DNA of 64,000 nucleotides from Minisyncoccota bacterium (GTDB lineage: Bacteria; Patescibacteriota; Minisyncoccia; Phycocordibacterales; PALSA-1337): positions 23,673 through 87,672 of the forward strand of contig JAGOQK010000002.1 of NCBI GenBank assembly GCA_017991475.1, written 5' to 3'. Below are positions 17,960 through 32,317 of the stretch, piece after piece. A program made the position numbers and the translations under genes. Positions within the stretch are counted from its first letter, which is position 1, and each line of letters begins with the position of its first letter. The notes under the pieces were generated by a model. That model did no database searches. It saw only the letters and a program-made list of their open reading frames with translations, and had not been told where the DNA came from.

Positions 17960-18069
17960 CCAGAAGGGCGAGACAAGTGTTTTGTCGCGTGTCATGTTGT
18001 ATTTGTACACGAATCTCTAGTAAACCGTTCTGCATGACACGCGACAAAACACTTGTCTCGCCCTTCTGG
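17960..18069 (-). repeat. palindromic intergenic element, copy A (core in reverse orientation)
   Basis: Perfectly complementary 37-bp arms at 17960-17996 and 18033-18069. They flank the 36-nt core at 17997-18032, whose reverse complement is CAGAACGGT-ttactagagattc-GTGTACAAATACAA. Confidence 0.85.
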
Positions 18070-18142: not shown

Positions 18143-18625
18143 GTGCCTTTTACTATCATGTCCACCGAAACTCAATATCTTACGAACGAAAAGTTCGCGG
18201 AGCTTACGAAAGAACTGGAAAATCTCAAGTCTATTCGTCGCAAGGAAGTTGCTGAACAGCTCGAATACGCAAAGAGGCTCGGTGATCTCTCTGAGAATGC
18301 TGAGTATCATCAGGCCCGCGAGGAGCAGGCTCTCGTCGAGGATCGTATCAGTCGTCTTGAGAATCTCCTCAAGAATGCTGTCATATCAGCAAAAGGAGGC
18401 AGCGATGTTGTGATTGTGGGGTCTACAGTGCGATTGACGAAGGAAGGTGACAACAAATCATACCTCTATACTCTGGTAGGGTCAGAGGAGGCGGATATGT
18501 CACAAGGCAAGGTTTCTAACATGTCACCACTCGGGTCCGCACTCCTCGGACACAAGGAGGGAGACAAAATTCAGGTTACGACCCCAAAGGGAGTTATCAA
18601 GTATCAGGTCGCTGCTGTAAAGTAA
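18143..18625 (+). CDS. greA: transcription elongation factor GreA
   Basis: N-terminal coiled coil with LGDLSENAEYHQAREEQ. C-terminal FKBP-like domain. Confidence 0.88.
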   Translation: MPFTIMSTETQYLTNEKFAELTKELENLKSIRRKEVAEQLEYAKRLGDLSENAEYHQAREEQALVEDRISRLENLLKNAVISAKGGSDVVIVGSTVRLTKEGDNKSYLYTLVGSEEADMSQGKVSNMSPLGSALLGHKEGDKIQVTTPKGVIKYQVAAVK

Positions 18626-18634
18626 TGAAAATCC

Positions 18635-20095
18635 ATGTCCTCACTCGAAGAACTTCGCTCAATACGACTCGGTAAACTCGACCTACTTAAGAAAGCGGGC
18701 ATGAACCCGTATCCAGTCTCTGTACCACGCGACTTCTGTCTCAAGGATGCGCGCGCGAATTTTTCAGAGTATGAAAAGTCTCAGAAAGAGGTTTCTCTGA
18801 GCGGCCGCATCATGGCTATTCGTGGACAAGGCGCCATTCTTTTCGTTGTACTCGATGATGGTAAGTCGACACTCCAGTCGGTCTTCAAGAAGGACACCCT
18901 CAAACCAGAATTATTCGAACTTTTTGCAAATGCGATAGATATTGGTGACATCATCAGTGTCACAGGAACTTTCTTCACCACCAACAGGGGAGAGCAGAGC
19001 ATTCTCGTCACTTCGTGGACTATCGCTTCCAAGTCACTCCTTCCTCTTCCAGAGAAGTGGCACGGTATCACCGATCCTGATGAGCGTTTCCGCAAGAGAT
19101 ATCTCGACTTACTCATGACTCCCGAACTCCGAGTGATGTTTGAGAAGAAATCTCAATTTTGGGATGTAACTCGTAGATTTATGAAGGAACACGGATTTCT
19201 CGAGGTTGAAACTCCAACTTTGGAAACGACGACCGGTGGTGCAGAAGCTACTCCATTTGCAACACATCACAATGATTTTGATTTACCTGTATACCTTCGT
19301 ATTTCAGTGGGTGAGCTTTGGCAGAAGAGACTTATGGCTGCCGGTTTTCAGAAAACATTTGAAATTGGTCGAACATATCGTAACGAAGGTACAAGTCCTG
19401 AGCATGCCCAAGAATTTACCAATATGGAGTTTTATTGGGCGTATGCAAACTATGAGGATGGCATGAAGCTATCTCAGGAACTGTATCGAACACTAGCCAA
19501 GGAGGTCTTCGGAACTACAAAATTTACTACAAGGGGTCACACATTTGATCTGGCGGACGAATGGGTACAAATTGACTACACTGACGAAATCAAGAAACAG
19601 ACTGGTCTAGATATTTCTACTGCATCTGAAAAGGATATGATGAATAAACTTGATGCACTAAACATGAAATATGAGGGAACAAATCGTGAGCGTTTAACAG
19701 ATACTCTCTGGAAGTATTGCCGTAAGAATATTTCCGGACCAGCATTCCTCATCAATCACCCAGTATTGGTTGCTCCGCTAGCAAAGATGGTTCCTGGTAA
19801 AAGTAGTGTAGTTCAAATGTTTCAACCGATCATTGCGGGTAGCGAGGTGGGCAGAGGGTATTCAGAGCTCAATGACCCCATTGATCAGAAGCAACGTTTT
19901 GAAGGGCAGCAAAAATTGATTGAAACTGGTGATACTGAGGCAATGATGTCTGATATGGAATTTGTCGAGATGCTCGAACATGGTATGCCGCCGACATGTG
20001 GTTTCGGGTTTGGCGAAAGACTTTTCAGTTTTATGGTGGATAAACCACTTCGTGAGACGCAGATGTTCCCGCTCATGAGGCCGAAAAGCAAGTAA
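18635..20095 (+). CDS. lysS: lysyl-tRNA synthetase (class II)
   Basis: OB-fold N-terminus. Class II motifs (…FEIGRTYRNEG… / …GSEVGRGYSELNDP… / …GFGFGERL…). Confidence 0.9.
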   Translation: MSSLEELRSIRLGKLDLLKKAGMNPYPVSVPRDFCLKDARANFSEYEKSQKEVSLSGRIMAIRGQGAILFVVLDDGKSTLQSVFKKDTLKPELFELFANAIDIGDIISVTGTFFTTNRGEQSILVTSWTIASKSLLPLPEKWHGITDPDERFRKRYLDLLMTPELRVMFEKKSQFWDVTRRFMKEHGFLEVETPTLETTTGGAEATPFATHHNDFDLPVYLRISVGELWQKRLMAAGFQKTFEIGRTYRNEGTSPEHAQEFTNMEFYWAYANYEDGMKLSQELYRTLAKEVFGTTKFTTRGHTFDLADEWVQIDYTDEIKKQTGLDISTASEKDMMNKLDALNMKYEGTNRERLTDTLWKYCRKNISGPAFLINHPVLVAPLAKMVPGKSSVVQMFQPIIAGSEVGRGYSELNDPIDQKQRFEGQQKLIETGDTEAMMSDMEFVEMLEHGMPPTCGFGFGERLFSFMVDKPLRETQMFPLMRPKSK

Positions 20096-20189
20096 AAAGG
20101 TAAAATTCAAAAGGCAAAATTAAGCGCATTGTCACTTTTGACTTTTGAATTGAACTTTTGATTTTTTAATTTTAACTTTTAAATTTTCC

Positions 20190-20414
20190 ATGAACTTCTT
20201 CACAAAAATGCTCGTCAAGAAACAGCTCAAGGGTAAGATCCCTGAGGGAGAGATGGATAAGATGATAGATATGATCGAGAAGAACCCAGATTTCTTCAAG
20301 CAGATGGCTGCATCTATCCAGGAGAAGATGAAGTCTGGTATGTCACAGGAAGAGGCGGCGATGGCTGTTATGCAGCAAGATGGGGATCAGCTCAAGAAAA
20401 TGATGGGCCAGTAG
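20190..20414 (+). CDS. small hypothetical protein (Lys/Met/Glu-rich)
   Basis: ORF preceded by an AT-rich tract. No homology recognised. Confidence 0.35.
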   Translation: MNFFTKMLVKKQLKGKIPEGEMDKMIDMIEKNPDFFKQMAASIQEKMKSGMSQEEAAMAVMQQDGDQLKKMMGQ

Positions 20415-20421
20415 ACAAAAA

Positions 20422-20440
20422 GCGGGTGATGATCACCCGC
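20422..20440. terminator. bidirectional hairpin between convergent genes
   Basis: GCGGGTGA-tga-TCACCCGC. Confidence 0.5.
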
Positions 20441-20446
20441 CTGGAA

Positions 20447-20620
20447 TTATAGCTTCAAGTATGTCAGTGCAAGCGGCGTAACAATCATCGCACTCGCAAC
20501 AAGCATAAGTGCGATAGCAGTACGGCGGTACTCGCGCGAATTCTGGAATACCTGAAGGAACAGTAGCCCCATCGCTCCTGCAAACATGATAATAATTTTG
20601 ACCAAGAACGCATCTGGCAT
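20447..20620 (-). CDS. 57-aa small membrane protein
   Basis: AAGGAG RBS 7 nt upstream of ATG. Two hydrophobic helices (MPDAFLVKIIIMFAGAMGLLFLQVF...ALMLVASAMIVTPLAL). Below the ORF-track cutoff. Confidence 0.4.
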   Translation of the reverse strand: MPDAFLVKIIIMFAGAMGLLFLQVFQNSREYRRTAIALMLVASAMIVTPLALTYLKL

Positions 20621-20704
20621 AGTATTCTCCTTTCTTCTGAGTTAATAGTAGCATGTAACCCCAAAAACTTTGCAATTTTCAGTATAAACTGTAAACTTCT
20701 CCCT

Positions 20705-21829
20705 ATGTCACTCTCCATCGGCATCGTCGGCCTGCCCAATGTAGGCAAATCAACTCTTTTCAACGCTCTGACCAAGAAGAGTGTTCTTGTTGCAAACTAC
20801 CCATTTGCGACTATCGACCCCTCGGTCGGAGTTGTCGCTGTACCGGATGAACGTCTCCATAAGCTTGCGGAATTTTCAAAGACCCAGAAGACTGTTCCTG
20901 CAGTTGTTGAGTTCGTCGATATTGCCGGTCTCGTCAAGGGTGCATCTGACGGCGAAGGTCTCGGCAACCAATTCCTGACCAACATCCGTGAGACAGACGC
21001 GATCGCAGAAGTGGTGCGCATATTCGAGGATGACAACATCATCCATGTTGATGGCAAGATCAACCCGCTCAAGGATATCGAGGTCATCAATCTCGAGCTC
21101 ATTCTTGCTGATATGCAAACAGTAACCAAGAGACTGGCCAACCTCAACAAGGAGGTTCGTGCGGGTAAGAAGGAGGCCATCATAGAGGCTGGTCTCGTTG
21201 AAAGAATTAAAACAGCCCTTGAATCAGGAAAACTCGCTTCTACGGTCACTCCCGATGAATTTGAGGCGCCATTCCTGCAACATCTCCATCTTCTTACCTC
21301 AAAACCCTTTATGTATGTCCTGAATAAGAAGTCAGGTGGCAAGAATTTGGACGAGATCAACGACGATCGTTTCCAAGCACTTCTGAAATTCTTTGCTGAT
21401 ACCAATGCGAAGTATGTCATTGTCGACGCGGGTATCGAGCAAGAGCTCAAGGATATGGAAGGCCCTGACAAGGTAGAGATGCGTAAGGCATTCTTCGGAG
21501 ACAATATGTCAGTAGAGGCACTCGCGAAGTCTGACGGTATCGATAACCTCATCAAGAAGGGATACGAGCTTTTGAATTTGATTACATATTTTACAACAGG
21601 CGAGAAGGAGACTCGTGCATGGACTATCGGTCGTGGCTGGACAGCGCCCAAGGCTGGCACTGCTATCCATGGAGATTTCGAAGCAAAATTCATCCGAGCG
21701 GAAGTTATTGAGTGGAATAAACTCATCGAAGCTGGATCCTTTGGTGCTGCTCGTGAAAAAGGATGGCTCAGAACTGAAGGGAAGGAGTATGTGGTCAATG
21801 ATGGTGATGTGATGGAATTCAAGATTTAG
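20705..21829 (+). CDS. ychF: ribosome-binding ATPase YchF (Obg-family GTPase)
   Basis: G1 IGIVGLPNVGKSTLFNALT. TGS domain at the C-terminus. Confidence 0.92.
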   Translation: MSLSIGIVGLPNVGKSTLFNALTKKSVLVANYPFATIDPSVGVVAVPDERLHKLAEFSKTQKTVPAVVEFVDIAGLVKGASDGEGLGNQFLTNIRETDAIAEVVRIFEDDNIIHVDGKINPLKDIEVINLELILADMQTVTKRLANLNKEVRAGKKEAIIEAGLVERIKTALESGKLASTVTPDEFEAPFLQHLHLLTSKPFMYVLNKKSGGKNLDEINDDRFQALLKFFADTNAKYVIVDAGIEQELKDMEGPDKVEMRKAFFGDNMSVEALAKSDGIDNLIKKGYELLNLITYFTTGEKETRAWTIGRGWTAPKAGTAIHGDFEAKFIRAEVIEWNKLIEAGSFGAAREKGWLRTEGKEYVVNDGDVMEFKI

Positions 21830-21977
21830 CCCTATTTTAGCCACAATACCGCTCAACAGAGCCATATAATTATCCCCAAAAACTTGCTTTTTGGGGTCAT
21901 ATGTGCTATAATAGTAACAGGTTAGAGTTTCGTCAGTTTGGTAAATTTTGCACAAAAAAATCAACAAGGGATCATCA

Positions 21978-22263
21978 ATATGAGAAGCGTACCGGTCAAG
22001 TCCGCGATCGCCCATCGGAAATGGAATCGCGAACACAACAGTCATTCCTGCAAGCTTCACTTCACTGGTTTCAAACCAGAACGATTGTGGAGATTTGTCG
22101 GGTTAACAGTCCTCATCCTGGCCATCATTGTTCTCCTGGGAAAGGTAACTCAATGAGCAGTAAGCTACGTTCATCGAGCTGGCCACAACTCATCATCACT
22201 GTCATTATCGGAGCTGGCACTATCTGTGCCTTTATCTACGAGCTTCTCAAGATGATCAAGTGA
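21978..22263 (+). CDS. two tandem tiny membrane peptides (59 aa at 21978-22156 and 36 aa at 22153-22263)
   Basis: Each has one hydrophobic helix. AGGGA about 10 nt upstream of the first. Confidence 0.25.
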
Positions 22264-22276
22264 CACAGTTTTCAGA

Positions 22277-22310
22277 AACCGCATCCCTCACCGGACGCGG
22301 TTTTCTTTTT
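22277..22310 (+). terminator. intrinsic terminator
   Basis: AACCGCATCC-ctcacc-GGACGCGGTT followed by TTCTTTTT. Confidence 0.6.
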
Positions 22311-22332
22311 GTAAAAAGTGCCATTTTAAGCT

Positions 22333-25300
22333 ATGATTTTACCCATGAAGAAACCTCAATCGAAAGCGAAGCTGCTCGGCGCATATGACCACAAGAAGGT
22401 AGAAGCAAAGTGGCAGAAGCAGTGGGACAAAACCAAAGCATTCAAAGCTACCGAAGATCCCAAGAAGAAGAAATTCTTTGGCTTGATTGAGTTCCCATAC
22501 CCATCAGGAGATGGTCTCCATGTCGGACATATCCGCTCCAACACAGCCATGGATATCATTGCTCGCAAGAGGCGCCGTGAGGGATACGAGGTGTTGTACC
22601 CAATAGGTTGGGATGCATTCGGTCTGCCAACTGAGAACTACGCTATCAAGACTGGCATCCAGCCTGCCATCGTTACCAAAAAGAACACCGACACATTCCG
22701 TCGCCAGCTCAAGGCACTCGGATTCTCTTTTGATTGGTCACGCGAAATCAACACAACTGATCCGAAGTATTACCGCTGGACACAGTGGATCTTTTTACAG
22801 TTCCTGAAAAAGGGATTGGCATACAAGAAGAAGATGACGATCAACTGGTGTCCCAAGGATCTCATCGGTCTTGCGAACGAAGAGGTGGTCAATGGATGCT
22901 GTGAGCGTTGTGGAACTCCTGTCGAGAAGCGCGACAAGGAGCAGTGGATGCTGGCGATAACAAAGTATGCTGATCGCCTCGACAAGGATCTTGATACGGT
23001 TGATTTTCTCGACAGGATAAAGACACAGCAGAGAAATTGGATAGGGAAGAGTGAAGGAGCGGAGATTAAATTCGAAGTTCGAATATCGAGATCCGAAGCA
23101 AATTCAAAATTAGAAGTACAAATACCTAAAAGGGAGATTACCGTCTTCACGACTCGCCCAGATACCCTCTTTGGTGTGACCTACGTGGTGCTTGCTCCTG
23201 AACATAAGCTCGTGGGTGAATTAATATCCACGATAGAAAATGCTGCAGAAGTTCGTGACTATATTTCAAAGTCCAAGCAGGAGACAGATATCCAAAGAAC
23301 CGACGCCTCAAAAGAAAAGTCAGGCGTGCAACTCAAGGGCATCATGGCCGTCAATCCTGTGAATGGCGAGGAAATCCCAGTCTGGATCTCCGACTATGTG
23401 CTCGCAGACTATGGTACAGGAGCTGTTATGGCTGTTCCTGCACATGATGATCGCGATTTTGAGTTTGCCCAGAAGTACAATCTACCGATCAAGACTGTCA
23501 TCGAGCCTCTCATTGTCAAAGAAGACGGCACTGATGCAGTCAGGAAAGATGCACCCTATGTCGAGCGCAATGCAGCAGTGTGTATCATCAAGCATTGGTC
23601 GGAGGACAAGTATCTCATGTCATTCTACAAAGCCAACGGCTGGAAAGGCTTTGTCGTGGGCGGAATTGAGAATGGTGAGAGCGTCGCAGTTACCGGCACT
23701 CGTGAGATTCATGAGGAGACGGGATACAAAAATGCAAAGTTCGTTCGTGAGGTCGGTACTATTCACTCAAAGTTCTTCCACGCAGTAAAATCTGTGAACA
23801 GGTTCGCTCACTTCAAGGTCGCATATTTCGAACTCTCCGATGGAGATCGTGACGAAATGGCTGAAGAGGAAAAGAAGCTTCATGATGTGGTCTGGCTTTC
23901 TCCCCAAGAAGTCACCACAGCAGTCAATCGCGAAGATATCAAGATCGCTTGGGACTTCTTCAATGGAAAAATTTCATATACAGGAAATGGTCTGCTCACA
24001 AATTCCAACTCATTTGATGGTAAGGATTCAGAATCAGTCAAAAAGGAAATCACCGAGAAGGCGGGTGGCAAGTGGGTTACCACATTCAAGCTCCGTGACT
24101 GGGTGTTCTCTCGCCAGCGTTATTGGGGAGAGCCGATACCAGTCGTACATTGTGATGTATGCGGTGTAGTTCCTGTCCCTGAAAAAGATCTTCCCGTCAA
24201 ACTCCCGAAGGTCAAGAATTATAAGCCGACAGAGACCGGCGAGTCACCACTTGCTGCTATTGAGAAGTGGGTGAATACCACTTGTCCCAATTGTGTCGCG
24301 AATAAGAAGAAACCAAAGTACCTCATCTTCGATTTTGATGGAGTGCTCGGAAACACGTGGACTGAATCAAATGAGGTCAAGGTTGTTATGGGTGATTCGG
24401 CGACTGTAGAGGATGCAGCGGCAGTCACGATGAAACATTTTGATAAGAAGCCATCTACAGAACGCAACCATTCGCTAACGACTGAGCAGTTGCAGAAGAA
24501 GCAAGAATGGATTACTACATTCGGAAAACATCTTTCCGAAACGGATTTTGGTTTGTTCAAAGGCTTTATTGCTGAACTGAAGAAGATCAAGAATGCAAAG
24601 TTTGCAGTCGTCTCATCAGGTTCATCACAGTATGTACTTCCTGCACTCAAAAAATCGGGGATTAAGTTCACACACATTCTTGCCTACGAAGATCACTACT
24701 CGAAGGAGGAAAAGGTAGAAAAAGTCTGTAAGGACTGGGGTATCTCACCGAAGGATGCATATTATTTTACCGATACTAAGGCGGACATTCTTGAGCTTCA
24801 GGATTTGATGGGTCGCGAGCGCATGATTGGATGTGCCTGGGGATGGCATGGATATGAAAAACTAAACGAGCTTCTTCCTGAAAAAATGATCCTTAGGGAA
24901 TTCAAAGACGTTCGCAAAGTCCTCAATCTTGACTGTCTTGCAAAGCGCGAAACAGATACGATGCCAAACTGGGCAGGTTCGAGCTGGTACTATCTCCGCT
25001 ACACAGATCCCAAAAATTCGAAAGAGTTCGCATCAATAGACAATCTCAAGTACTGGACTCCTGTCGACTGGTACAACGGCGGCATGGAGCATACAACTTT
25101 GCACTTGCTCTACTCTCGCTTCTGGCACAAATTCTTGTTCGACCTCGGACTCGTTCCGACCAGTGAGCCGTATCAGAAGAGGACATCTCACGGCCTCATC
25201 CTTGCCGCAGGTGGCGAGAAGATGTCCAAGTCAAAGGGTAATGTCGTGAACCCTGACAGCATCATCGAGACTGTCGGTGCAGATAGTTTGCGCCTGTATG

Positions 25301-25890
25301 AGATGTTCATGGGTCCATTTGATCAGCCGATTGCATGGAATACAGATAATATTGCGGGAGTGCGACGCTTTATTGAGAGAGTGTGGAAGCTCCGTGAGAA
25401 AATTCAGATAGGCACGGCCTCATCTAGGGATGCACAGAAAACCATCCACAAAACGATCAAGAAAGTAACTGAGGATATCGAAGCCATGCGTTTCAATACT
25501 GCAATCAGTTCACTTATGATCGCGCTCAATGAGCTTGAAAAGGTGGAATCGGTGACGGTTGAAAATTTTGAAGCTCTGCTCCAGCTCCTCGCTCCGTTTG
25601 CTCCACACGTCACTGAGGAGCTCTGGGCGTCACTTGGGTACAAGGATTCTATTCATGCATCACCATGGCCCGTATATGACCCTGCACAGGCAGTCGATAG
25701 TGAGGTGACTATCATGATCCAAATCAATGGCAAGACTCGTGGTTCATTTACCGCACCTATCGATACCTCGAAAGAGGAGCTTGAAAAACTCGCCAAGGAT
25801 TCACCGGAAGGAAAAAAGTGGTTGGAAGGTAAGTCCATCTCTAAAGTTATTGTAGTACCGAACAAGTTGGTGAACATTGTAGTCTTATAG
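22333..25890 (+). CDS. leuS: leucyl-tRNA synthetase with two inserted extra domains (Nudix and HAD)
   Basis: HIGH (PYPSGDGLHVGH), the editing region, KMSKS and the C-terminal anticodon-binding region are all present in one 1185-aa frame. An extra Nudix box lies at about 23570-23960 (GGIENGESVAVTGTREIHEETGY). An extra HAD motif-I segment lies at about 24300-24940 (LIFDFDGVLG), between CPNC and AKRETDTM. Confidence 0.9.
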   Translation: MILPMKKPQSKAKLLGAYDHKKVEAKWQKQWDKTKAFKATEDPKKKKFFGLIEFPYPSGDGLHVGHIRSNTAMDIIARKRRREGYEVLYPIGWDAFGLPTENYAIKTGIQPAIVTKKNTDTFRRQLKALGFSFDWSREINTTDPKYYRWTQWIFLQFLKKGLAYKKKMTINWCPKDLIGLANEEVVNGCCERCGTPVEKRDKEQWMLAITKYADRLDKDLDTVDFLDRIKTQQRNWIGKSEGAEIKFEVRISRSEANSKLEVQIPKREITVFTTRPDTLFGVTYVVLAPEHKLVGELISTIENAAEVRDYISKSKQETDIQRTDASKEKSGVQLKGIMAVNPVNGEEIPVWISDYVLADYGTGAVMAVPAHDDRDFEFAQKYNLPIKTVIEPLIVKEDGTDAVRKDAPYVERNAAVCIIKHWSEDKYLMSFYKANGWKGFVVGGIENGESVAVTGTREIHEETGYKNAKFVREVGTIHSKFFHAVKSVNRFAHFKVAYFELSDGDRDEMAEEEKKLHDVVWLSPQEVTTAVNREDIKIAWDFFNGKISYTGNGLLTNSNSFDGKDSESVKKEITEKAGGKWVTTFKLRDWVFSRQRYWGEPIPVVHCDVCGVVPVPEKDLPVKLPKVKNYKPTETGESPLAAIEKWVNTTCPNCVANKKKPKYLIFDFDGVLGNTWTESNEVKVVMGDSATVEDAAAVTMKHFDKKPSTERNHSLTTEQLQKKQEWITTFGKHLSETDFGLFKGFIAELKKIKNAKFAVVSSGSSQYVLPALKKSGIKFTHILAYEDHYSKEEKVEKVCKDWGISPKDAYYFTDTKADILELQDLMGRERMIGCAWGWHGYEKLNELLPEKMILREFKDVRKVLNLDCLAKRETDTMPNWAGSSWYYLRYTDPKNSKEFASIDNLKYWTPVDWYNGGMEHTTLHLLYSRFWHKFLFDLGLVPTSEPYQKRTSHGLILAAGGEKMSKSKGNVVNPDSIIETVGADSLRLYEMFMGPFDQPIAWNTDNIAGVRRFIERVWKLREKIQIGTASSRDAQKTIHKTIKKVTEDIEAMRFNTAISSLMIALNELEKVESVTVENFEALLQLLAPFAPHVTEELWASLGYKDSIHASPWPVYDPAQAVDSEVTIMIQINGKTRGSFTAPIDTSKEELEKLAKDSPEGKKWLEGKSISKVIVVPNKLVNIVVL

Positions 25891-26007
25891 AAACCGAGCG
25901 TGACGACATGTGTGCTCTCACGCTACATCGCAGAACGGTTCGCGAAAGTGTAGTGTACAAATACAACGATGTAGCGTGAGAGCACACATGTCGTCACGCT
26001 CGGTTTC
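25890..26007 (+). repeat. palindromic intergenic element, copy B
   Basis: Perfect 41-bp inverted arms at 25890-25930 and 25967-26007. Core at 25931-25966 is CAGAACGGT-tcgcgaaagtgta-GTGTACAAATACAA. The left arm begins on the last base of the leuS stop codon. Confidence 0.85.
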
Positions 26008-26089
26008 GCTCTATTTGACCAGATTTCCAAGATATGGTAGTATGATTCTATCAAGCCTGGGCATAGGGGATTAGCATATCCCCACAAGA

Positions 26090-27181
26090 TTGACTTTATT
26101 ACAACCAAGTGCTACAAATAGTAGCAATTACTTATCAGCGAATTACATGGCAACTACAACCATTTCGTTCAAGCCCAAGCAAATCGTCAAGAGACTCCTC
26201 GCCTCACTTCCTGACCGTGCCCGTGATGTTATTCTCTATCGTTACGGACTCGGTGCAGACACACGCCGCATGACCCTCGATGGTATCGGCAAGAAGTACA
26301 GCATTACTCGTGAGCGCGTACGCCAAATCGAGAACTACGCTCTCGGAATGATCCGCAAATCAGATGAGTACAAGCTTGAAAAAGCCGTATTCTCTGAAAT
26401 CGAAAACCTCCTTCATGCATTTGGTGGTGTCGTCGTCGAAGATGATTTCCTCGGACATCTCACCAAAGACAAGAGTCTCCAGAACCATATCCATTTCCTC
26501 CTTGTGATCGGCGAACCGTTCACCAAGAAGAAGGAAGACGACGAATTCAGTCATCGCTGGCACGTCAACGAGGCTCTCGCCAACCAGGTCGAGGATGCTC
26601 TTCGCAAGCTCTATGCCAATCTCAACAATCAAGATCTCCTTCCTGAATCAGAGATCATCAACAAGTTCCTCAATCATCTTGAAGGCGTCTCTGAGCGCTA
26701 CAAGAACCAGGAGATTATGAAGCGCTGGCTTGCCCTCTCAAAGTCGATCGGCAAGAATGCCCTCGGCGACTGGGGTACCGCCAAGTCATCAAACATCAAG
26801 ACCAAGGGTATGCGTGATTATGCGTTCCTCGTTATCAGGAAACATGGTTCACCGATACACTTCCGTGATGTTGCAAAACAGATCACCTCTATGTTCAACA
26901 AGAAAGCCCATGTCGCAACGACGCACAATGAGCTCATCAAGGATCCTCGTTTCGTTCTCGTTGGCCGCGGTCTCTATGCTCTCGCTGAGTGGGGATACGC
27001 TCCCGGTATCGTCCGCGATGTCATCCGTCACGTGATCGAGAAGAATGGCCCAATGACCAAGGATGAGATCGTCACCAAAGTCATGAAGGAACGCTATGTG
27101 AAGGAAAACACTATCGCCGTCAATCTTCAGAATCCAAAGTATTTCAAGAAGGACAAGGAAGGTAAATATTCCGCAGCGTAA
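26090..27181 (+). CDS. sigma-70 region-4-like HTH fused to a C-terminal HARE-HTH-like domain
   Basis: Region 4-like segment: ...LPDRARDVILYRYGL...TLDGIGKKYSITRERVRQIENYAL. C-terminal winged-helix resembles the HARE-HTH of RNAP delta/restriction enzymes: DYAFLVIRKHGSPIHFRDVAKQI...KDPRFVLVGRGLYALAEWGY. The likely start is Met at 26147. Confidence 0.55.
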   Translation: MTLLQPSATNSSNYLSANYMATTTISFKPKQIVKRLLASLPDRARDVILYRYGLGADTRRMTLDGIGKKYSITRERVRQIENYALGMIRKSDEYKLEKAVFSEIENLLHAFGGVVVEDDFLGHLTKDKSLQNHIHFLLVIGEPFTKKKEDDEFSHRWHVNEALANQVEDALRKLYANLNNQDLLPESEIINKFLNHLEGVSERYKNQEIMKRWLALSKSIGKNALGDWGTAKSSNIKTKGMRDYAFLVIRKHGSPIHFRDVAKQITSMFNKKAHVATTHNELIKDPRFVLVGRGLYALAEWGYAPGIVRDVIRHVIEKNGPMTKDEIVTKVMKERYVKENTIAVNLQNPKYFKKDKEGKYSAA

Positions 27182-27294
27182 ATAATAGCAAGTTGCTTGG
27201 AAGAAGAGGTTATAATGACCTCTTTTTTCATGCATGAAGATCCTCATTGTTTTGCTGATTTTGGACTTTCCACATTATGTTGTAAACTTAGAGC

Positions 27295-28575
27295 ATGCCA
27301 CTCGAACAGTACTTCCCGGTGCTCGTCAAAGAGTTCCAGGGTATCATTCTTCCGCAATCAATACAGTTCGCCATCACGATAGCCCCTATCGTGCTGTGCA
27401 TCATTCTTGCAACGATCATGTGGCCTCTCTGGGTGCGCTATGTCCGTGCCAAGTTCTTCCTGTCACTCAAATACACGGTACTGGAAATATCACTCCCGAA
27501 GGACACATTCAAATCGCCCCTTGCAATGGAGGTCTTCCTCCAGTCGCTCCACAATACTTCGAACGGAAGCCACTTCGCACAATTCTGGAAAGGGGAGATG
27601 AGGCCATGGTATTCACTCGAGGTTGTCTCGATCGAAGGCCGCATCAAGTTTTTCGTCTGGACAGAGGATCGCCGTAAGGCAGGTGTCATCAATGGTCTGT
27701 ACTCACAATTCCCAGGGATTGAGGTCAAAGAAGTTGAGGATTACACCAAGTCAGTGCATTTCGATCCAGACACCATGAAGGTATGGGCAGCAGAAATGAA
27801 ATTTACTAAAGATGACGCGTACCCGATAAAATCCTATGTCGACTATGGTCTCGACAAAGATCCGAAGGAAGAATTTAAAGTTGATCCCATGCTCCCGATG
27901 CTCGAATTCCTCGGCAGCGTCGGCCCCAATCAGCAGGTATGGATACAAATACTCATTCAGGCACATATTCCCGATAAGCGTAAACCCGGACACTGGTTCA
28001 AAAAGGTGGATAGCTACCAGGAAGGAGCCAAGAAGCTCGTCAACGATATCATGATCCGCGACTCCAAGACCAAAGGTATCAAGGCTGAGAATAAGAAAAG
28101 TGGGGAAGTATTTCCTGACATACCACGCCTCTCAAAAGGTGAGCAAGATGTTGCTGAAGCGATCGAGCGCAGTGTCTCCAAACTTTCTTTTGATACCGGT
28201 ATCCGTGGTATATACATGGGCAGCAAGGAATCATTCAATACTATCTTTGGTGTTGGTGGTATCCTCGGAAGCTTCAAGCATTTCAACACAGAGCACCTCA
28301 ATGGATTCAAGCCTAACGGCGATGTATGGCATCCACGCCTCGGAGATCCGTGGAAAGACTACAAAGATATCCGCAGGAATAGGTACGCGGCCGACGCTAT
28401 CGCGATGTACAAACGTCGCTCATATCACTATGCACCTCACGAAGGGAAGCCGCTTGTCATGAGCACCGAGGAGCTCGCTACGGTCTACCACTTCCCAGGA
28501 TCTGTTGCTGCAACCCCTACACTCCAGCGCATACCATCCAAGAAAGCCGAAGCTCCATCCAATCTTCCTCTCTAG
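27295..28575 (+). CDS. large membrane-anchored hypothetical protein
   Basis: One N-terminal TM helix (ITIAPIVLCIILATIMWPLWV) then about 380 aa of soluble domain with no recognised motif. Confidence 0.4.
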   Translation: MPLEQYFPVLVKEFQGIILPQSIQFAITIAPIVLCIILATIMWPLWVRYVRAKFFLSLKYTVLEISLPKDTFKSPLAMEVFLQSLHNTSNGSHFAQFWKGEMRPWYSLEVVSIEGRIKFFVWTEDRRKAGVINGLYSQFPGIEVKEVEDYTKSVHFDPDTMKVWAAEMKFTKDDAYPIKSYVDYGLDKDPKEEFKVDPMLPMLEFLGSVGPNQQVWIQILIQAHIPDKRKPGHWFKKVDSYQEGAKKLVNDIMIRDSKTKGIKAENKKSGEVFPDIPRLSKGEQDVAEAIERSVSKLSFDTGIRGIYMGSKESFNTIFGVGGILGSFKHFNTEHLNGFKPNGDVWHPRLGDPWKDYKDIRRNRYAADAIAMYKRRSYHYAPHEGKPLVMSTEELATVYHFPGSVAATPTLQRIPSKKAEAPSNLPL

Positions 28576-28578
28576 TCT

Positions 28579-29604
28579 ATGTCTGCTCTCAATTTCAGAA
28601 TCATACCGGATACCCGGCGCTCGCCCAGCCTGTACACCAGGATCAAGAGGGTCCTCCGTGGAAGCAAGATGGCTATCGGCGCATTCTTCATTGTATTGAT
28701 AGCGGTATCGCTGTTCGGTATAGCCAAATCACTAGCGCCGAGCGACTTCTCTCGCGGCACGATCGTCCGTATCAAGGACGGCATGACGGTATCAGAAACG
28801 GCATCGTTGCTCGCGGAAAAGAATATCATCCGGTCTCAATTTATGTACAAAGCATATGTACGCCTGGTACATAGCAGCAATGGTGTCCGTGCCGGCAGCT
28901 ATCTGTTCGACAACCCTCAGTCAGCACTGCGGGTGGCGTATAGGACTGCATATGGCGTCGATGAACTACAGAAGATCAAAGTTGCGATACCCGAGGGTTC
29001 GAGCTCAGTGAATATTGCGCGGATTATTAAAAAGGCGATACCGGCATTTGATGACAAAGCATTCCTGGCTGAAGCGCGGGTGCATGAAGGATATTTATTC
29101 CCTGAAACATACTTTTTTAATCCTGATGTGACTCCAAAGGAAGTGATCTCTGAAATGAAGAGTCAATTCAATGAGAAGGTGGCGACACTGATGGACGCTA
29201 TTGCAACATCTACTCATTCCCTGAATAACATCATCATTCTTGCGTCCATCCTCGAAGAGGAGGCGAACAATACCGTCGACCGGCGCTTGATTTCAGGAGT
29301 GCTCTGGAATCGCACTGATATAGGCATGGCGCTCCAAGTCGATGCACCGTTCTATTATCTCTTTGGTAAAACATCGAGCCAGCTGACTCTGGCTGACCTC
29401 GCGACCACATCACCCTATAACACCTACAAAAATAAGGGGCTTCCACCTGGTGCGATATCCAATCCTGGCCTCGACTCCATCAAGGCCGCGCTTTATCCGA
29501 CACCCTCGAAGTATCTGTTTTATCTTGCTGATTCGAAGGGGGTGACGCACTATGCGGTCACACATGAGCAGCATGTTGAGAATAAGTTCAAGTATTTGCA
29601 ATAA
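28579..29604 (+). CDS. mltG: endolytic murein transglycosylase MltG (YceG family)
   Basis: TM anchor. YceG motifs: GYLFPETY, ASILEEE and a SPYNTYKNKGLPPGAISNPG-type C-terminus. Confidence 0.8.
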   Translation: MSALNFRIIPDTRRSPSLYTRIKRVLRGSKMAIGAFFIVLIAVSLFGIAKSLAPSDFSRGTIVRIKDGMTVSETASLLAEKNIIRSQFMYKAYVRLVHSSNGVRAGSYLFDNPQSALRVAYRTAYGVDELQKIKVAIPEGSSSVNIARIIKKAIPAFDDKAFLAEARVHEGYLFPETYFFNPDVTPKEVISEMKSQFNEKVATLMDAIATSTHSLNNIIILASILEEEANNTVDRRLISGVLWNRTDIGMALQVDAPFYYLFGKTSSQLTLADLATTSPYNTYKNKGLPPGAISNPGLDSIKAALYPTPSKYLFYLADSKGVTHYAVTHEQHVENKFKYLQ

Positions 29605-29672
29605 ACAGTTATCAGTTGTCAGTTACAAGTTGTAAGTAGTAAACAGCAAAAGCGTTTTCATGTAAAAGAAAA

Positions 29673-29701
29673 GGCCGGCGACAGGTGAGTGTCGCGCGGC
29701 C
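29673..29701. terminator. GC-rich hairpin between convergent genes
   Basis: GGCCGGCGAC-aggtgagt-GTCGCGCGGCC. Confidence 0.5.
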
Positions 29702-29726
29702 AGTTGGTGTTGCCGTCAATGCTTGC

Positions 29727-30122
29727 CTACGCGGCTACAGGTAACGGACATATGATTCCCCGGTCACGAAGCATTATCATGAGGTCGCTTTTGAATACCG
29801 TCAGCGCTCCAGTTTCCTGAACCTGAAGAACCAGATTGGGTGCGCTGATGGCGAGCGATGATGACCAAATAACAAGCGGAAGGGGACTAAGCTTCTGTGC
29901 GTGCTGAGCAACAGTCAGACCATCTCCCCCGCGTCCCATTTGATGGTCAGTAATGATTAGATCAAACTGCTCAGTACTCATCAGTCCAATGGCCTCTGGA
30001 GCATTTTTTGCTTCCATGACAGTGTGACCCACTAGTTCCAGATTCATCCGAATCATTTCAATCATTTCGGGTAGATCATCAACCACAAGTATTTTCATTT
30101 TCATAGGTACTATTTCCTTCAA
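29727..30122 (-). CDS. stand-alone response-regulator receiver domain (CheY-like)
   Basis: KILVVDD...LIITDHQM...receiver signature. No output domain. No histidine kinase in the window. Confidence 0.7.
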   Translation of the reverse strand: MKEIVPMKMKILVVDDLPEMIEMIRMNLELVGHTVMEAKNAPEAIGLMSTEQFDLIITDHQMGRGGDGLTVAQHAQKLSPLPLVIWSSSLAISAPNLVLQVQETGALTVFKSDLMIMLRDRGIICPLPVAA

Positions 30123-30139
30123 TGCCTCCCTCGAAATGA

Positions 30140-31396
30140 GTGAGGACTTTCTCCTTGGATAGCTCCGAAGTGGGGCTATTTGAGCTCGCTTTTTGTTGTT
30201 TGTATTGGCGAACTCTCTGTATATATGATAGCATATCCAACATGAAAAGTCAAGCTATTAAACGGCTCAGCAAGGGCTTGAAAAAGCACACTTCGGGCGA
30301 AAAACTCCCCAATAAGCGCGTATTCGTCGGACTCTCAGGTGGAGTAGACAGCTCTGTTTCTGCAGCCCTGCTCAAAGAAGCGGGATATGACGTCACTGGT
30401 GTCTTCATCAAGGTCTGGCAGCCTGACTGGATAGAATGCACCTGGAAGGAGGAGCGCCGTGACGCTATGCGCGTGGCAGCACACCTCGACATACCATTTG
30501 TCACGCTCGATCTGGAGAAAGAGTACAAGCGTGATGTTGCTGACTATATGATCGCTGAGTATCGCGCCGGTCGCACACCCAATCCTGATGTCATGTGCAA
30601 CAAGGCGGTGAAGTTCGGCGGATTTTACGACTGGGCGATGAAAGAGGGGGCGGACTATGTTGCGACAGGACATTATAGTCAAATTCATAGTTCAAAAAGT
30701 GGCATGGGGTACTCATTGAAAATGGGAATCGATCAGAACAAGGATCAATCCTACTTTCTCTGGAATATTCGTGCTGAGCAACTAGGGCACATCTTGTTCC
30801 CGATAGGACACCTGACCAAGCCTGAGGTTCGAAAGCTTGCGGCGAAGTTCAAGCTACCTACCGCAGAAAAGAAGGATAGTCAGGGCATCTGCTTCATAGG
30901 CATGGTTGATATGAAGGAATTTCTTGCACACTATATTGAAGCGAAACCGGGCGATGTCATAGACGAAACGGGTAAGGTCATCGGGAAGCATTCTGGTGCA
31001 GTGTTCTCAACGATCGGGGAGCGCCACGGGTTTACTATTCATGAGAAGGGAACTCAGGACAAACCACGATTCGTAATTGCCAAGGATGTTGAGATGAATA
31101 CTATTACTGTTTCCGAGAGTAAGCACGGTACGCATTCCCCTGAAAAAATAACCTCGCCTGTATCAGTGCGCATCGAGAAGACCAACTGGCCTGGAAGTAT
31201 CCCATCTGTCGGCACTGAATACACCGCGCGAGCTCGGTATCGCCAGAAGCTTGAAACGGTAATTTTCGCTTCAATTGATTTGGCTGCCCAGACTGCTGAG
31301 GTTAGATTTGAACATGCCCCCGAAGCAATGACCCCTGGACAATCTCTCGTAATCTACGATGGTGATACCTGCATCGGTGGCGGCATCATCGAGTAA
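30140..31396 (+). CDS. mnmA: tRNA-specific 2-thiouridylase MnmA
   Basis: PP-loop GLSGGVDSSV and the catalytic Cys region. The likely start is Met at 30242. Confidence 0.88.
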   Translation: MRTFSLDSSEVGLFELAFCCLYWRTLCIYDSISNMKSQAIKRLSKGLKKHTSGEKLPNKRVFVGLSGGVDSSVSAALLKEAGYDVTGVFIKVWQPDWIECTWKEERRDAMRVAAHLDIPFVTLDLEKEYKRDVADYMIAEYRAGRTPNPDVMCNKAVKFGGFYDWAMKEGADYVATGHYSQIHSSKSGMGYSLKMGIDQNKDQSYFLWNIRAEQLGHILFPIGHLTKPEVRKLAAKFKLPTAEKKDSQGICFIGMVDMKEFLAHYIEAKPGDVIDETGKVIGKHSGAVFSTIGERHGFTIHEKGTQDKPRFVIAKDVEMNTITVSESKHGTHSPEKITSPVSVRIEKTNWPGSIPSVGTEYTARARYRQKLETVIFASIDLAAQTAEVRFEHAPEAMTPGQSLVIYDGDTCIGGGIIE

Positions 31397-31405
31397 TTCA
31401 CAGGG

Positions 31406-32179
31406 GTGCGTGACCGTCTTTCTGCTACAATATCCGCCATGCATCACCAGACTCGCACGGCCGTACTCCTCATTATCCTATTGGCAGTAATGAGTGGTCT
31501 CTATGTATTCAACAGGATCAGTGAGCCGTATAGTGTCAACCCAGAGACAGCAGAAGTATATCCATTCAATGGCACCGTCCCTCCTGAGATATCACTCGGC
31601 ACCACCACACAGAAGAATATTATTTTCACTTTCGATGCAGGGTCTGGTACCGCATCAGTAGTCCCTGTCTTGAATGCGCTCAAAAAGCATGGCATCAAAT
31701 CTACATTTTTCATGACAGGTCAGTGGGTACTTCGCAATCCTGAGCTTGCACGAATGATTGTTGCGGATGGCCACGAAGTATTCAATCATTCATTCAACCA
31801 CCCACACCTCACCGAGCTCAGTGACGAACTGATCGCTGCACAGCTCCGCACTGCGGATGAAGCAATTTCTGACATTATCGGTAGTAGCACCAAACCGTAT
31901 TTCCGCCCGCCGTATGGAGATCGAGATGCCCGAGTACTTGCGGCCGCTGCCAAAGCGGGATATCAGTCGGTATATTGGACGGCAGACGCAGGTGACTGGA
32001 TGGAGAGCGAGGGTATGACTTCAGACGAGGTGAAGTACCGTATTTTCTCCAATCTTCGGCCAGGCGCAATCATACTGATGCACCTCGGTGACTCCATCAC
32101 TGGCACCATACTCGACGAAGTGATCACTGAAGTAGAGAGGCTTGGATATGAGACTGTTTCATTGACGCAAGGTCTGTAG
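31406..32179 (+). CDS. polysaccharide deacetylase (NodB homology domain), membrane-anchored
   Basis: TFDAGSGT..., HEVFNHSFNHP and the LMHLGD motif. Confidence 0.8.
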   Translation: MRDRLSATISAMHHQTRTAVLLIILLAVMSGLYVFNRISEPYSVNPETAEVYPFNGTVPPEISLGTTTQKNIIFTFDAGSGTASVVPVLNALKKHGIKSTFFMTGQWVLRNPELARMIVADGHEVFNHSFNHPHLTELSDELIAAQLRTADEAISDIIGSSTKPYFRPPYGDRDARVLAAAAKAGYQSVYWTADAGDWMESEGMTSDEVKYRIFSNLRPGAIILMHLGDSITGTILDEVITEVERLGYETVSLTQGL

Positions 32180-32187
32180 TCAAGAAA

Positions 32188-32297
32188 GCGCGGTGTGCGC
32201 ACATGTATTTTTACTCATGTTATGCAGAACGGTACACTGTAGAATCGTGTACAAATACAACATAACATGAGTAAAAACACATGTGCGCACCTCGCGC
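32188..32297 (+). repeat. palindromic intergenic element, copy C
   Basis: Arms at 32188-32224 and 32261-32297 are complementary apart from one internal A/C position and the two outermost positions. Core at 32225-32260 is CAGAACGGT-acactgtagaatc-GTGTACAAATACAA. Confidence 0.8.
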
Positions 32298-32317
32298 TTC
32301 CCTGATATACTATCGCC

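Follow-up and report, generated by a model that had tools for sequence, protein, structure and literature searches.

Integron attC sites are imperfect or perfect palindromes that lie right after an open reading frame, are recognized as a folded single strand, and keep their structure while their sequence varies. REPINs show compensatory changes that keep their hairpins and have a single-copy trans-acting enzyme that is encoded elsewhere (PMC3116915). For the Correia/NEMIS elements (CREE) of Neisseria, the literature describes an IHF site in the central region and RNA hairpins that are bound or cut by RNase III (PMC2649163). TIGR systems have been reported from phages and parasitic bacteria (PMC12045711).

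The window analyzed here (the whole stretch of DNA, 64,000 nucleotides from a Minisyncoccota bacterium) contains three copies (A, B, and C) of an intergenic palindromic element, belonging to a family whose members measure about 110–125 bp and have arms of 37–42 bp per side. Similar to REPINs, these elements are non-coding intergenic sequences of approximately 100 nt with two inverted halves, can form a long hairpin in ssDNA or RNA, preserve it by compensatory changes, and are vertically persistent. However, REPINs have invariant 16-mers at their outer ends (the hairpin base) and a less conserved spacer, whereas here the loop is invariant and the stem varies. REPINs also reach tens to hundreds of copies per genome, compared with five to six known copies (a lower bound) in this family, and their trans-acting enzyme is known, whereas here such an enzyme is only hypothesized. 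No GTAG/CGTC-type head was seen in the elements, and a Pfam scan of 40 window proteins revealed no RAYT gene. Because the copies have different outer arm ends (CCAGAAGG, GAAACCGA, GAAAGCGC, CCCCGACA, and CCCCGCAA) and the invariant part is the central loop, assignment to REP or REPIN-RAYT was rejected.

Correia elements are likewise palindromic intergenic insertions (about 100–150 bp) that are polymorphic between related genomes; they are co-transcribed with neighboring genes and provide the closest "works like" model for effects on transcripts. Their terminal inverted repeats of 26 bp are conserved, their targets show TA duplications, and their near-identical copies number in the hundreds, whereas in this family the ends are not conserved, a target duplication is not visible, and the arms differ by 21–39% between copies. 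For MITEs, insertion polymorphism is shared (sites A–D are empty in some relatives), but conserved terminal inverted repeats are lacking, with arms 61–79% identical and termini not conserved. The preliminary description of these elements had already characterized the architecture as the inverse of that of MITE and IS, with a conserved center and variable yet complementary arms, and our comparisons agree and extend this to REP elements.

The traits of attC sites named above recall this family, but in attC sites R''/R' boxes (RYYYAAC/GTTRRRY) are located at the outer ends, extrahelical bases are present, and cassette arrays lie near intI. In contrast, the conserved part of this family is central, outer boxes are absent, the neighbors are syntenic housekeeping genes, and there is no array. 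As no GTTRRRY was found at the 3' ends of the elements and no integrase in the window, an integron origin was discarded. TIGR units resemble the family in their variable, consistently palindromic flanks, short conserved motifs, and variable internal sequence (PMC12045711), but they form tandem arrays beside a Tas gene and have box C/D motifs and two 8–12-nt spacers, all of which are absent here. Specifically, no box C (RUGAUGA) or box D (CUGA) was found apart from one CTGA in the L016 copy, the copies are single and 6–8 kb apart, and no Nop-domain match was obtained. The units are also not CRISPR, as they are single, without an array, and have flanks that are inverted copies of each other rather than unique spacers. 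An intrinsic terminator does not fit a stem of 37–42 bp with a 36-nt loop and no consistent U-tract, nor a divergent copy (D, see below) and an intra-operon one (C). An Rfam scan of the window at the gathering threshold yielded only a tRNA, and permissive scans of copies B and C gave generic matches to miRNA-precursor hairpins on both strands, at roughly half of the gathering score or less and in most cases far below half. Blastn against annotated phages and plasmids found no match. The preliminary description, which had recognized no repeat class and had considered the elements not CRISPR-like, is therefore upheld with respect to Rfam, REP/REPIN, MITE, attC, TIGR, phages, and plasmids.

Organization of the three copies in the window

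The core pattern CAGAACGGT-N13-GTGTACAAATACAA has exactly three matches in the window, compared with zero expected (Table 1). Allowing up to three mismatches added no further match in the window, and 100 shuffles gave none. The spacing between the arms is exactly 36 nt in copies A, B, and C, which are the three longest inverted repeats of the window. The arms of copy C can be followed over 45 nt at 89% complementarity, and this imperfect extension spans 32180–32305. A repeat family with one architecture at three loci, as first proposed, is thus confirmed by the exact cores, inverted arms, and fixed spacing.

Table 1. Palindromic elements and their cores, in positions of the window.
Feature	Position	Strand	Description
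Copy A, whole element	17960..18069	(-)	arms 17960-17996 and 18033-18069, 37 nt, 100% complementary
Copy A, 36-nt core	17997..18032	(-)	CAGAACGGT TTACTAGAGATTC GTGTACAAATACAA
Copy B, whole element	25890..26007	(+)	arms 25890-25930 and 25967-26007, 41 nt, 100% complementary
Copy B, 36-nt core	25931..25966	(+)	CAGAACGGT TCGCGAAAGTGTA GTGTACAAATACAA
Copy C, whole element	32186..32299	(+)	39-bp stem with three non-Watson-Crick positions (A.C, T.C, and G.T)
Copy C, 36-nt core	32225..32260	(+)	CAGAACGGT ACACTGTAGAATC GTGTACAAATACAA

The genes around the copies are housekeeping genes that are syntenic in relatives. Copy A has the stop codon of mrdA (17950) on one side and a promoter-like site of greA (18086–18115) on the other. 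The left arm of copy B begins on the final base of the leuS stop codon, and the -35-like box of the next gene lies 7 nt from the end of the element (promoter-like site at 26015–26043). Copy C is flanked by the stop codon of a polysaccharide deacetylase gene (32179) and the ATG of an ATP-cone/Mrr gene (32318); with only 13–20 nt to this ATG, it is located inside an operon. The RNA hairpins of copies A–C have calculated energies of -65 to -88 kcal/mol (z = -11 to -14), and those of the DNA hairpins are -43 to -59 kcal/mol on either strand. Another long hairpin of the window, at 33216–33303, is unrelated to the family.

Long palindromes can be generated by MDA chimeras, and short-read assemblers have trouble at these loci, such that an assembly or amplification artifact with chimeric fold-back joins has to be considered. 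However, NCBI MAGs, ENA and NCBI assemblies with identical sequence, JGI contigs, and Logan unitigs, which were obtained independently with different samples and pipelines, all show this architecture, the elements lie inside long contigs, and they have in common a specific asymmetric core that is unrelated to the flanks. Over 7,423 bp, the Logan read-level assembly (L006), which is independent of the window, does not differ from it, and it terminates 30 nt inside the left arm of copy B; this is the expected effect of a true palindrome on the assembly graph and argues against an artifact. The probability of an artifact, a possibility raised when the elements were first described, is therefore practically nil. 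The flipped core of copy A was recovered as a minus-strand match, but short-read assembly determines its orientation only weakly, given that perfect arms of this length exceed typical k-mers.

Further copies and their genomic sites

We searched GTDB representative genomes, JGI metagenomes, and IMG/VR viral contigs for the core pattern in its exact and relaxed forms. These scans revealed only two true extra copies, D (L001) and E (L002), and the counts are lower bounds because palindromes break assemblies. Three other matches in metagenomes lack arms and were dismissed as chance matches. Copies D and E do bear arms, and the concern that the core might consist of chance 9-mers or 14-mers without arms does not apply to the true copies. 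Both were found in one Parcubacteria MAG, which probably represents the same organism as the window. The origin from a CPR (Parcubacteria) genome, presumed in the preliminary description, is supported. The sixth core-bearing copy (D'', in L016) belongs to another species, occupies a site orthologous to D, and has three transitions in the core ends. The spacer is 36 nt long in all six copies, and the genomes with intact cores are JBDLTF01 and GCA_964357625. A rescan of the viral contigs with a degenerate core gave no match, and a covariance-model search of 292 kb found nothing beyond the six copies. The family is real and unusual, but has few copies and no recognized partner or function.

The copies are spread over unrelated intergenic sites, whose gene arrangements include tandem, convergent, divergent, and intra-operon ones. 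Copy D separates serS from dprA, which are transcribed divergently, and lies 14 nt from the ATG of dprA; copy E is located between convergent stop codons. The preliminary description had placed every copy 0–9 nt behind a stop codon and ahead of a plus-strand gene, a rule that holds inside the window but breaks down beyond it. The link to gene 3' ends does not generalize, and therefore the results do not point to termination or RNase III processing as a dedicated role.

L008 lacks an element at sites A, B, and C; site B is also vacant in L011–L014, and site C in L007. At site D, an element is present in L001, L015, L016/17, L018, and L020 (truncated in the last) and absent from L023/24. This patchy occupancy of orthologous sites indicates that the copies were not all acquired at once, the one at site D being the oldest, those at A and B more recent, and C confined to the window lineage. 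Such presence and absence favors a selfish or duplicative origin, and the empty sites could represent loss instead of absence of gain. The empty-site sequences of L008 and L007 are unlike the arms, which speaks against arms derived from the target site. Small native hairpins are present at the empty sites A and B of L008 but not at sites C and D, and so a rule of insertion into hairpins is unsupported. Comparison of occupied and empty sites revealed no evident direct repeat, with flanks too diverged to define the junctions. The 40 window proteins scanned against Pfam also contain no candidate transposase, integrase, RT, Nop-domain protein, or nuclease, and those that could be identified are all housekeeping proteins.

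Variation of the core and mirrored change in the arms

The five exact copies agree fully in the 9-nt and 14-nt ends of the core, and all nine variable positions fall within the central 13 of the 36 nt (P = 7.6e-6). These central nucleotides vary, as first described, but do not differ completely: 4 of the 13 positions are invariant, and two loop subtypes can be distinguished, namely, ..AGTGTA (B, D, and E) and ..AGAWTC (A and C). In the core-sense strand, the small inner helix of the core has only wobble-compatible transitions (C-G to U.G and G.U to A-U), and the inner helix of the RNA minimum-free-energy core fold has no two-sided covariation. A conserved TGTA/TACA mini-hairpin in the DNA fold was rejected, as it is disrupted in the L016 variant. 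A promoter within the core was also rejected, since the conserved 14-mer and its reverse complement, read by eye, contain no acceptable -35/-10 pair. Sequences from JGI 3300056827 and 3300056850 have kept the arms with scrambled or deleted loops, including L007 A' (14-nt loop), L007 B' (about 37 nt), and L015 (38 nt). The conservation of the core is lineage-specific, with loss at all three orthologous sites examined in L007/L015-type genomes. The sequence-specific core of the preliminary description accordingly stands for the ends in the five exact copies but not for these genomes.

The homology of the arms between copies is weak (mean alignment score 7.0, compared with 2.9 ± 1.4 for shuffled arms). 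Within copies, all 162 arm pairs of A, B, D, and E are Watson-Crick, with no G·T. Over the inner 16 bp of the six copies, pairing is 100%, and two-sided changes occurred at 14 of the 16 pairs and one-sided changes at none. Pairing this high was not found in any of 500 shuffles, and slid registers are 25–54% paired. Complementary arms with residual similarity between copies, as originally noted, are thus well beyond chance. The orthologous copies D and D'' provide a direct comparison: the element is 89% identical, its neighboring spacer is barely alignable, and all differences in the paired zone are mirrored, including a 1-nt indel. Furthermore, an ATGTGT box lies between 16 and 18 nt from the core, depending on the copy, and the arms are nonetheless perfect, which implies that indels are mirrored.

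The absence of wobble pairs and of one-sided changes, together with the mirrored indels, points to DNA-level copying from arm to arm by template switching, rather than ordinary RNA-stem selection, as the process that shapes the arms. The selection on structure that had been proposed is supported insofar as pairing is maintained; strong selection on an RNA structure is not, as the changes favor arm copying. Published work describes template switching as making imperfect inverted repeats perfect, with multi-base compensatory changes and mirrored insertions, and as extending arms and inverting spacers or loops (PMC8794818; PMC8604942, PMC13100816). Hairpins of this origin match the family in that all changes are mirrored, the arm length is variable, and the spacer is flipped. 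However, template switching is a mutational mechanism and not an element family; it leaves the shared, invariant, and asymmetric core unexplained and does not account for homologous copies at new loci. Perfect stem covariation alone is no proof of an RNA-level function.

Origin and possible roles of the family

We tentatively interpret the family as a slowly spreading foldback repeat, restricted to a lineage within the Parcubacteria/Paceibacteria clade, with the asymmetric 36-nt loop as a recognition motif for a trans factor; to this joint reading we assign somewhat less than an even chance. Arm complementarity would be kept by copying one arm from the other at the DNA level, and the likely route would be intramolecular template switching (quasipalindrome correction) in replication or repair. 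The spacer ends would form a bipartite recognition motif, presented as a single-stranded loop on an extruded hairpin (ssDNA, cruciform, or RNA) and bound by a putative trans-acting factor encoded elsewhere. This factor may itself carry out the copying of the element, or it may be a host protein that came to use it, and its loss would explain the decay of all three loops in the L007/L015-type lineage. Effects on neighboring transcripts, as a roadblock, terminator, or RNase III substrate, may be a context-dependent by-product.

Several observations run against the foldback repeat. Only six core-bearing copies were found, of which five may share one genome, and the copy number is far under that of typical MITE or REPIN families. 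No mobilizing enzyme, target-site duplication, or excision product was seen. Copy C, the youngest by phyletic pattern, is the least rather than the most perfect. Several species retain copy D at the same locus, where both its arms and its core have changed less than the spacer beside them; such retention resembles purifying selection acting on the locus and would not be expected of a purely selfish element. Arm copying could also be mimicked by selection for Watson-Crick pairing on both strands, as in a cruciform.

One alternative is a host-functional cis-acting RNA, in which a hairpin of ~40 bp with a protein-bound apical domain would be a signal for mRNA processing, stability, or termination (e.g., an RNase III site or a block to 3'-exonucleases, by analogy to REP/BIME or Correia elements in mRNAs). 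A stop codon on one side and the next promoter-like site on the other place copies A and B at the boundaries of transcription units, and the location of copy E, the extreme stability of the hairpins, the wobble-compatible transitions of the inner core helix, and the conservation of the element at site D relative to its flanking spacer all agree with such a role, as do T-rich tracts read downstream of several copies in the core-sense direction. Nevertheless, we consider this RNA unlikely, though well worth weighing: arms with neither G.U pairs nor one-sided changes are atypical for RNA stems, and the inner helix lacks two-sided covariation. In addition, copy A is antisense to both neighbors, copy D is situated in a divergent promoter region, an efficient terminator so close to the ATG at the intra-operon copy C would be harmful, and the same gene junctions exist in close relatives without the element.

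Strict Watson-Crick pairing would be required if both strands must fold, as expected for a chromosomal DNA site where a protein that binds or processes DNA would recognize a sequence-specific loop on a cruciform or hairpin, for example in replication (primosome), recombination, or nucleoid organization. The invariable spacer length, the fixed 13-nt spacing of the bipartite motif, the stability of the DNA hairpins on both strands, and an orientation independent of transcription are consistent with this possibility. However, no such protein is known, there is no positional regularity along the chromosome, three copies are within 14 kb and the rest of the window has none, and close relatives manage without the sites. 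Sister lineages also keep the arms while the loop decays, which suggests that the loop is dispensable for palindrome persistence. We regard a DNA site of this kind as quite improbable. A stand-alone guide-type or small regulatory RNA (a TIGR unit, an IS110 bridge-RNA-like molecule, or an shRNA-like precursor) would have its target set by the variable 13-mer or the variable arms. Its logic superficially matches that of TIGR stem-loop arrays (PMC12045711), and the conserved center is 36 nt long. Against it stand the lack of a tandem array, of box C/D motifs other than the incidental CTGA, and of a gene for a Nop-domain protein or other nuclease among the scanned window proteins. Moreover, the 13-mers match nothing in the window above shuffled expectation, the arm 14-mers do not recur elsewhere, and the arms are homologous between copies and hence are not unrelated spacers. 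The motif and target search largely refuted the guide-RNA reading, which is now highly improbable.

In addition to the foldback repeat favored above, we envisage that the asymmetric 36-nt loop on a perfect stem of ~40 bp may be the cis-recognition module of a hairpin-dependent CPR system, an idea that appears unlikely to us even with both of its versions taken into account. In one version, the family would be a copy-and-paste element whose second arm is rebuilt from the first by fold-back or template-switch synthesis at each copying; if true, this would explain arms that are always perfect and diverge fast around an invariant loop. In the other, the family would represent a novel type of structured RNA or ssDNA ligand, bound by protein and co-evolving with a partner specific to the lineage. 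If true, this would explain why the core ends are identical among divergent paralogs of one genome, different in the orthologous copy of another species, and decayed everywhere in a third lineage.

Genomes of CPR/Patescibacteria are tiny and gene-dense, and to our knowledge descriptions of repeat or mobile-element families in them are scarce. Palindromes such as these break short-read assemblies and make the orientation of the spacer ambiguous, with consequences for MAG quality. The joint loss of the loops in one lineage leads us to predict a partner that acts in trans, and a family that persists across species is a natural experiment in how a bacterial chromosome tolerates long palindromes and keeps them perfect.

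Architecture of the elements and variation of the core

A pattern scan of the 64-kb window for CAGAACGGT-N13-GTGTACAAATACAA yielded three exact matches, one in each of the copies A, B, and C (see table). Allowing up to three mismatches added no match in the window, and 100 dinucleotide-preserving shuffles of the window gave none. In an unbiased inverted-repeat scan, the same loci were the three longest inverted repeats of the window, each with exactly 36 nt between the arms, in agreement with the preliminary description of a core within long inverted arms. Folding energies were -65 to -88 kcal/mol as RNA (z = -11 to -14) and -43 to -59 kcal/mol for each strand as DNA. All three copies lie inside 14.3 kb (17960-32305), which suggests local spread or regional preference if the genome holds few copies.

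An assembly artefact, raised earlier as a concern, has hardly any probability. The independent Logan assembly L006, built from raw reads, matches the window without a single difference across 7,423 bp and ends 30 nt inside the left arm of copy B (window 25919); this is the point at which a genuine palindrome interrupts a k-mer graph, and the loci are therefore not artefactual. Another Logan assembly also ends inside an arm, with contig L018 starting within the right arm at the orthologous position of copy D (site D). Such short-read breakage makes spacer orientation weakly determined, so the reported flip of the copy A core agrees with its minus-strand match but is not firmly placed. It also makes copy numbers in metagenome-assembled genomes (MAGs) lower bounds; MAG and unitig assemblies from this clade are probably fragmented at these palindromes, with copy numbers underestimated.

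Other genomes were searched for the core, as had been proposed. With one genome scanned for each GTDB species, two additional copies came to light, D and E, on two contigs (L001 and L002, respectively) of Candidatus Parcubacteria MAG JBDLTF01, each with 42-nt, 100% complementary arms and a 36-nt core. A relaxed core pattern had only three armless chance matches in JGI metagenomes, IMG/VR had no match even with a degenerate core, and nothing was found in annotated phages and plasmids.

Among the five exact copies (A-E), all nine variable core positions fall inside the central 13 of 36 (P = 7.6e-6), and the 9-nt and 14-nt ends are therefore constrained. Contrary to the first description, the central 13 nt are not wholly different: four of 13 positions are invariant, and two loop subtypes exist, ..AGTGTA (B, D, E) and ..AGAWTC (A, C). 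The ends, described as invariant, indeed have no difference at 23 positions in these copies, while the arms differ by 21-39%. The orthologue of D in L016 (D''; core CGGAACGGT-TCACTGATGTGTA-GTGTACAAACACGA, also in L017) differs from D at five of 36 positions, including three transitions in the ends, a divergence rate similar to that of the arms. Since the core ends differ between D and D'' yet not among the exact copies, the uniformity of the latter far exceeds the expectation from the orthologue rate. It is possible that end constraint is much stronger in the window lineage and relaxed elsewhere, or that copies of one genome follow a genome-specific consensus through trans-factor co-evolution or concerted evolution. 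Under either option, the loop would function in the window lineage as a recognition sequence. All five identical cores could derive from one genome. Neither of two candidate folds establishes a structure inside the core: in the predicted 6-bp inner helix, variation is wobble-type and one-sided only and one position is mostly unpaired, and an alternative TGTA/TACA mini-hairpin (DNA fold) is broken in the L016 variant.

Elements and neighboring features in the window and in related contigs
Feature	Position	Strand	Description
Copy A	window 17960-18069		core 17997-18032 (-); arms 37 nt, 100% complementary
Copy B	window 25890-26007		core 25931-25966 (+); arms 41 nt, 100% complementary
Copy C	window 32186-32299		core 32225-32260 (+); 39-bp stem; with an imperfect extension to 32180-32305, arms 45 nt, 89% complementary
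LeuS	window 22333-25890		1,185 aa; editing and anticodon-binding domains separated by inserted NUDIX and HAD_2 hydrolase domains
Non-coding stretch 5' of sigma70_r4/HARE-HTH gene	window ~26008-26140
Same stretch in relatives	L007 13794-13939; L008 13527-13666; L011 3309-3448; L012
ORF in leuS/sigma-like intergenic space	L011 2951-3298		115 aa; no Pfam family on record
tRNA gene	window 797-869	-	Rfam RF00005, 72.6 bits
Long hairpin unrelated to the family	window 33216-33303		arms 28 nt, 93% complementary, each itself a small palindrome; 32-nt loop
AT-rich inverted repeat	window 47354-47455		arms 31 nt, 84% complementary, 40 nt between; flanked by two short ORFs
Different long hairpin	L008 14707-14829		arms 35 nt, 89% complementary, 53-nt loop; after sigma-like gene
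Native palindrome at empty site A	L008 2424-2464		ATATTTCAAG-C-CTTGAAATAT; centred on mrdA stop, overlapping greA -35 box
Native hairpin at empty site B	L008 13500-13527		TGTTGTG..CACAACA; 3' of leuS

Gene context and site occupancy

The window is core housekeeping chromosome, with the order mrdA, copy A, greA-lysS-ychF-leuS, copy B, a sigma-like gene, DUF8128, yceG, mnmA, deacetylase, copy C, and ATP-cone/Mrr; no mobile-element gene was found among 40 window proteins scanned. The placement first described, with a start 0-9 nt past a stop codon and a plus-strand gene following, applies only within the window. Copy E takes up the space separating the stop codons of two convergent genes, and D separates serS from a divergent DprA-like gene, with the dprA ATG 14 nt away. 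The apparent tie to gene 3' ends is accidental and peculiar to the window. From the end of copy C to the next gene's ATG there are 13-20 nt; because in relatives this gene follows immediately on the deacetylase gene, copy C sits inside an operon.

Several neighboring features were recorded. Among LeuS homologues from Patescibacteria in the database, many likewise carry NUDIX, in some cases together with HAD or alpha/beta-hydrolase inserts. Genomes with only 76-86% identical LeuS share a nearly unchanged non-coding sequence 5' of the sigma70_r4/HARE-HTH gene; two TTGAC(C/T) -35-like boxes lie in it, as do a pair of conserved small hairpins, GGGGATTAGCATATCCCC and TGCTACAAATAGTAGCA, and it may be a regulatory leader. 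In L011, the ORF listed in the table fills the position of element B.

Occupancy of sites A-C was compared in LeuS-anchored syntenic loci and that of site D in SerS-anchored loci. L007, whose LeuS is 86% identical, has long hairpins at sites A and B, with family-like arms (..ACATGTGTGTTCTGTGTATGTCATG), paired at 95% and 91%, and loops of 14 and ~37 nt without the core; site C is empty. These loops resemble the window cores weakly and in the matching orientation only (p ~0.02-0.03 each), which fits orthologous elements with decayed cores. All three sites are empty in L008 (LeuS 76% identical), as is site B in L011-L014. Site D is occupied in L016/L017, from the same assembly as L008 (GCA_964357625.1), and in L015 (SerS 95% identical), which has perfect family-like arms around an unrelated 38-nt loop lacking significant similarity to the core in either orientation. 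In L020-22 (SerS 86% identical), site D has a hairpin with 25-bp arms and a 5-nt loop, whose arms match the outer family arm as far as the CATGTG box, indicating a central deletion; the site is empty in L023/24 (SerS 84% identical). A covariance model of six core copies, another proposed check, recovered no new core copy in 292 kb from the clade, its one additional match being L015 (30 bits, from arms alone).

Taken together, these sequence comparisons indicate that D is old and that A and B are younger; C is known from the window lineage only. The conserved core is lineage-specific: two lineages retain it, and it has been lost from each of the three sites examined in L007/L015-type genomes, with L007 and L015 assumed to be one lineage.

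Small native palindromes were seen at empty sites A and B of L008 and were absent from empty sites C and D. The hairpin at window 33216-33303 occupies part of an intergenic region of 305 bp, compared with only 27 bp in L007, and may represent another insertion specific to this lineage; no copies were found elsewhere in the DNA compared. The long L008 hairpin has neither the family core nor the CATGTGT box. Intergenic hairpins of such length may turn up repeatedly in this clade.

Mirrored evolution of the arms

Left arms are 61-79% identical between copies and nonetheless homologous as a set, sharing the CATGTGT box and proximal ..ATG/..TCG. In copies A, B, D, and E, all 162 pairs are Watson-Crick, and G.T is absent. 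Of the 45 positions in copy C, five are not Watson-Crick. When the inner 16 bp and the core of six copies were aligned without gaps, 14 of 16 inner pairs have changed on both sides and none on one side, with 100% of cells paired. None of 500 shuffles reached these values, and slid registers were 25-54% paired. The box-to-core distance varies from 16 to 18 nt, so indels are also mirrored. Between D and D'', all paired-zone differences are mirrored and none is one-sided (three substitutions and one 1-nt indel when gapped; six differing positions when ungapped).

Ordinary RNA stems evolve via G.U intermediates and carry several percent G.U. The lack of such pairs, together with mirrored indels, points to a DNA-level process in which one arm serves as template for its partner. 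Replication template switching copies one arm onto the other, and also extends arms and inverts spacers (PMC8794818, PMC8604942, PMC13100816). Elements with a scrambled loop (L015 and site A of L007) still have near-perfect arms, and arm maintenance is thus independent of the core.

Known systems and possible origin

The elements match none of the described repeat classes with which they were compared, in line with the preliminary description. Rfam has no family at threshold for them; the tRNA is the only window match at the gathering threshold, and sub-threshold matches are generic miRNA-precursor hairpins on both strands, which reach at best about half of each family's gathering score and usually far less. 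REP/REPIN elements have invariant 16-mers at the hairpin base and a variable, compensating central part (PMC3116915), whereas here the centre is conserved; this reversed layout, with no head motif found and no RAYT gene among the 40 window proteins, led us to reject them. MITE/Correia elements were rejected because the termini are not conserved and target duplication is not visible, attC sites for want of R''/R' boxes, a cassette array, and an integrase in the window, and CRISPR, as stated before, for want of an array. TIGR stem-loop arrays were rejected, with no array, box C/D motif, or Tas gene. For an intrinsic terminator the geometry is wrong, and C and D are placed where ending transcription would do harm or be of no consequence.

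Our favored but tentative reading, held at slightly less than an even chance, is a lineage-restricted foldback repeat family. The repeat would slowly colonize intergenic DNA by duplication, and its arm complementarity would be kept by DNA-level arm-to-arm copying. The asymmetric loop would serve as a bipartite recognition motif for a putative trans factor, with effects on neighboring transcripts as context-dependent by-products. Architecture, mirrored arm changes, variable site occupancy, and lineage-dependent loop decay are observed directly; template switching, the trans factor, and the way the family spread are inferred. A host-functional, cis-acting RNA hairpin is unlikely: the predicted RNA folds are very stable, but the perfect covariation without G.T, earlier ascribed to strong selection on a structure, is better explained by a DNA-level mechanism than by selection acting on RNA. 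Less probable again is a cruciform DNA site serving a DNA-processing protein; each strand is predicted to fold stably as DNA, and the arms persist around scrambled loops. A guide-type RNA is very improbable; the loop holds a variable 13-mer, and neither the 13-mers nor the arms have targets.

The family belongs among small intergenic palindromic or stem-loop repeats, and its novelty lies in the inverted conservation pattern of the six copies, which is both unusual and testable.
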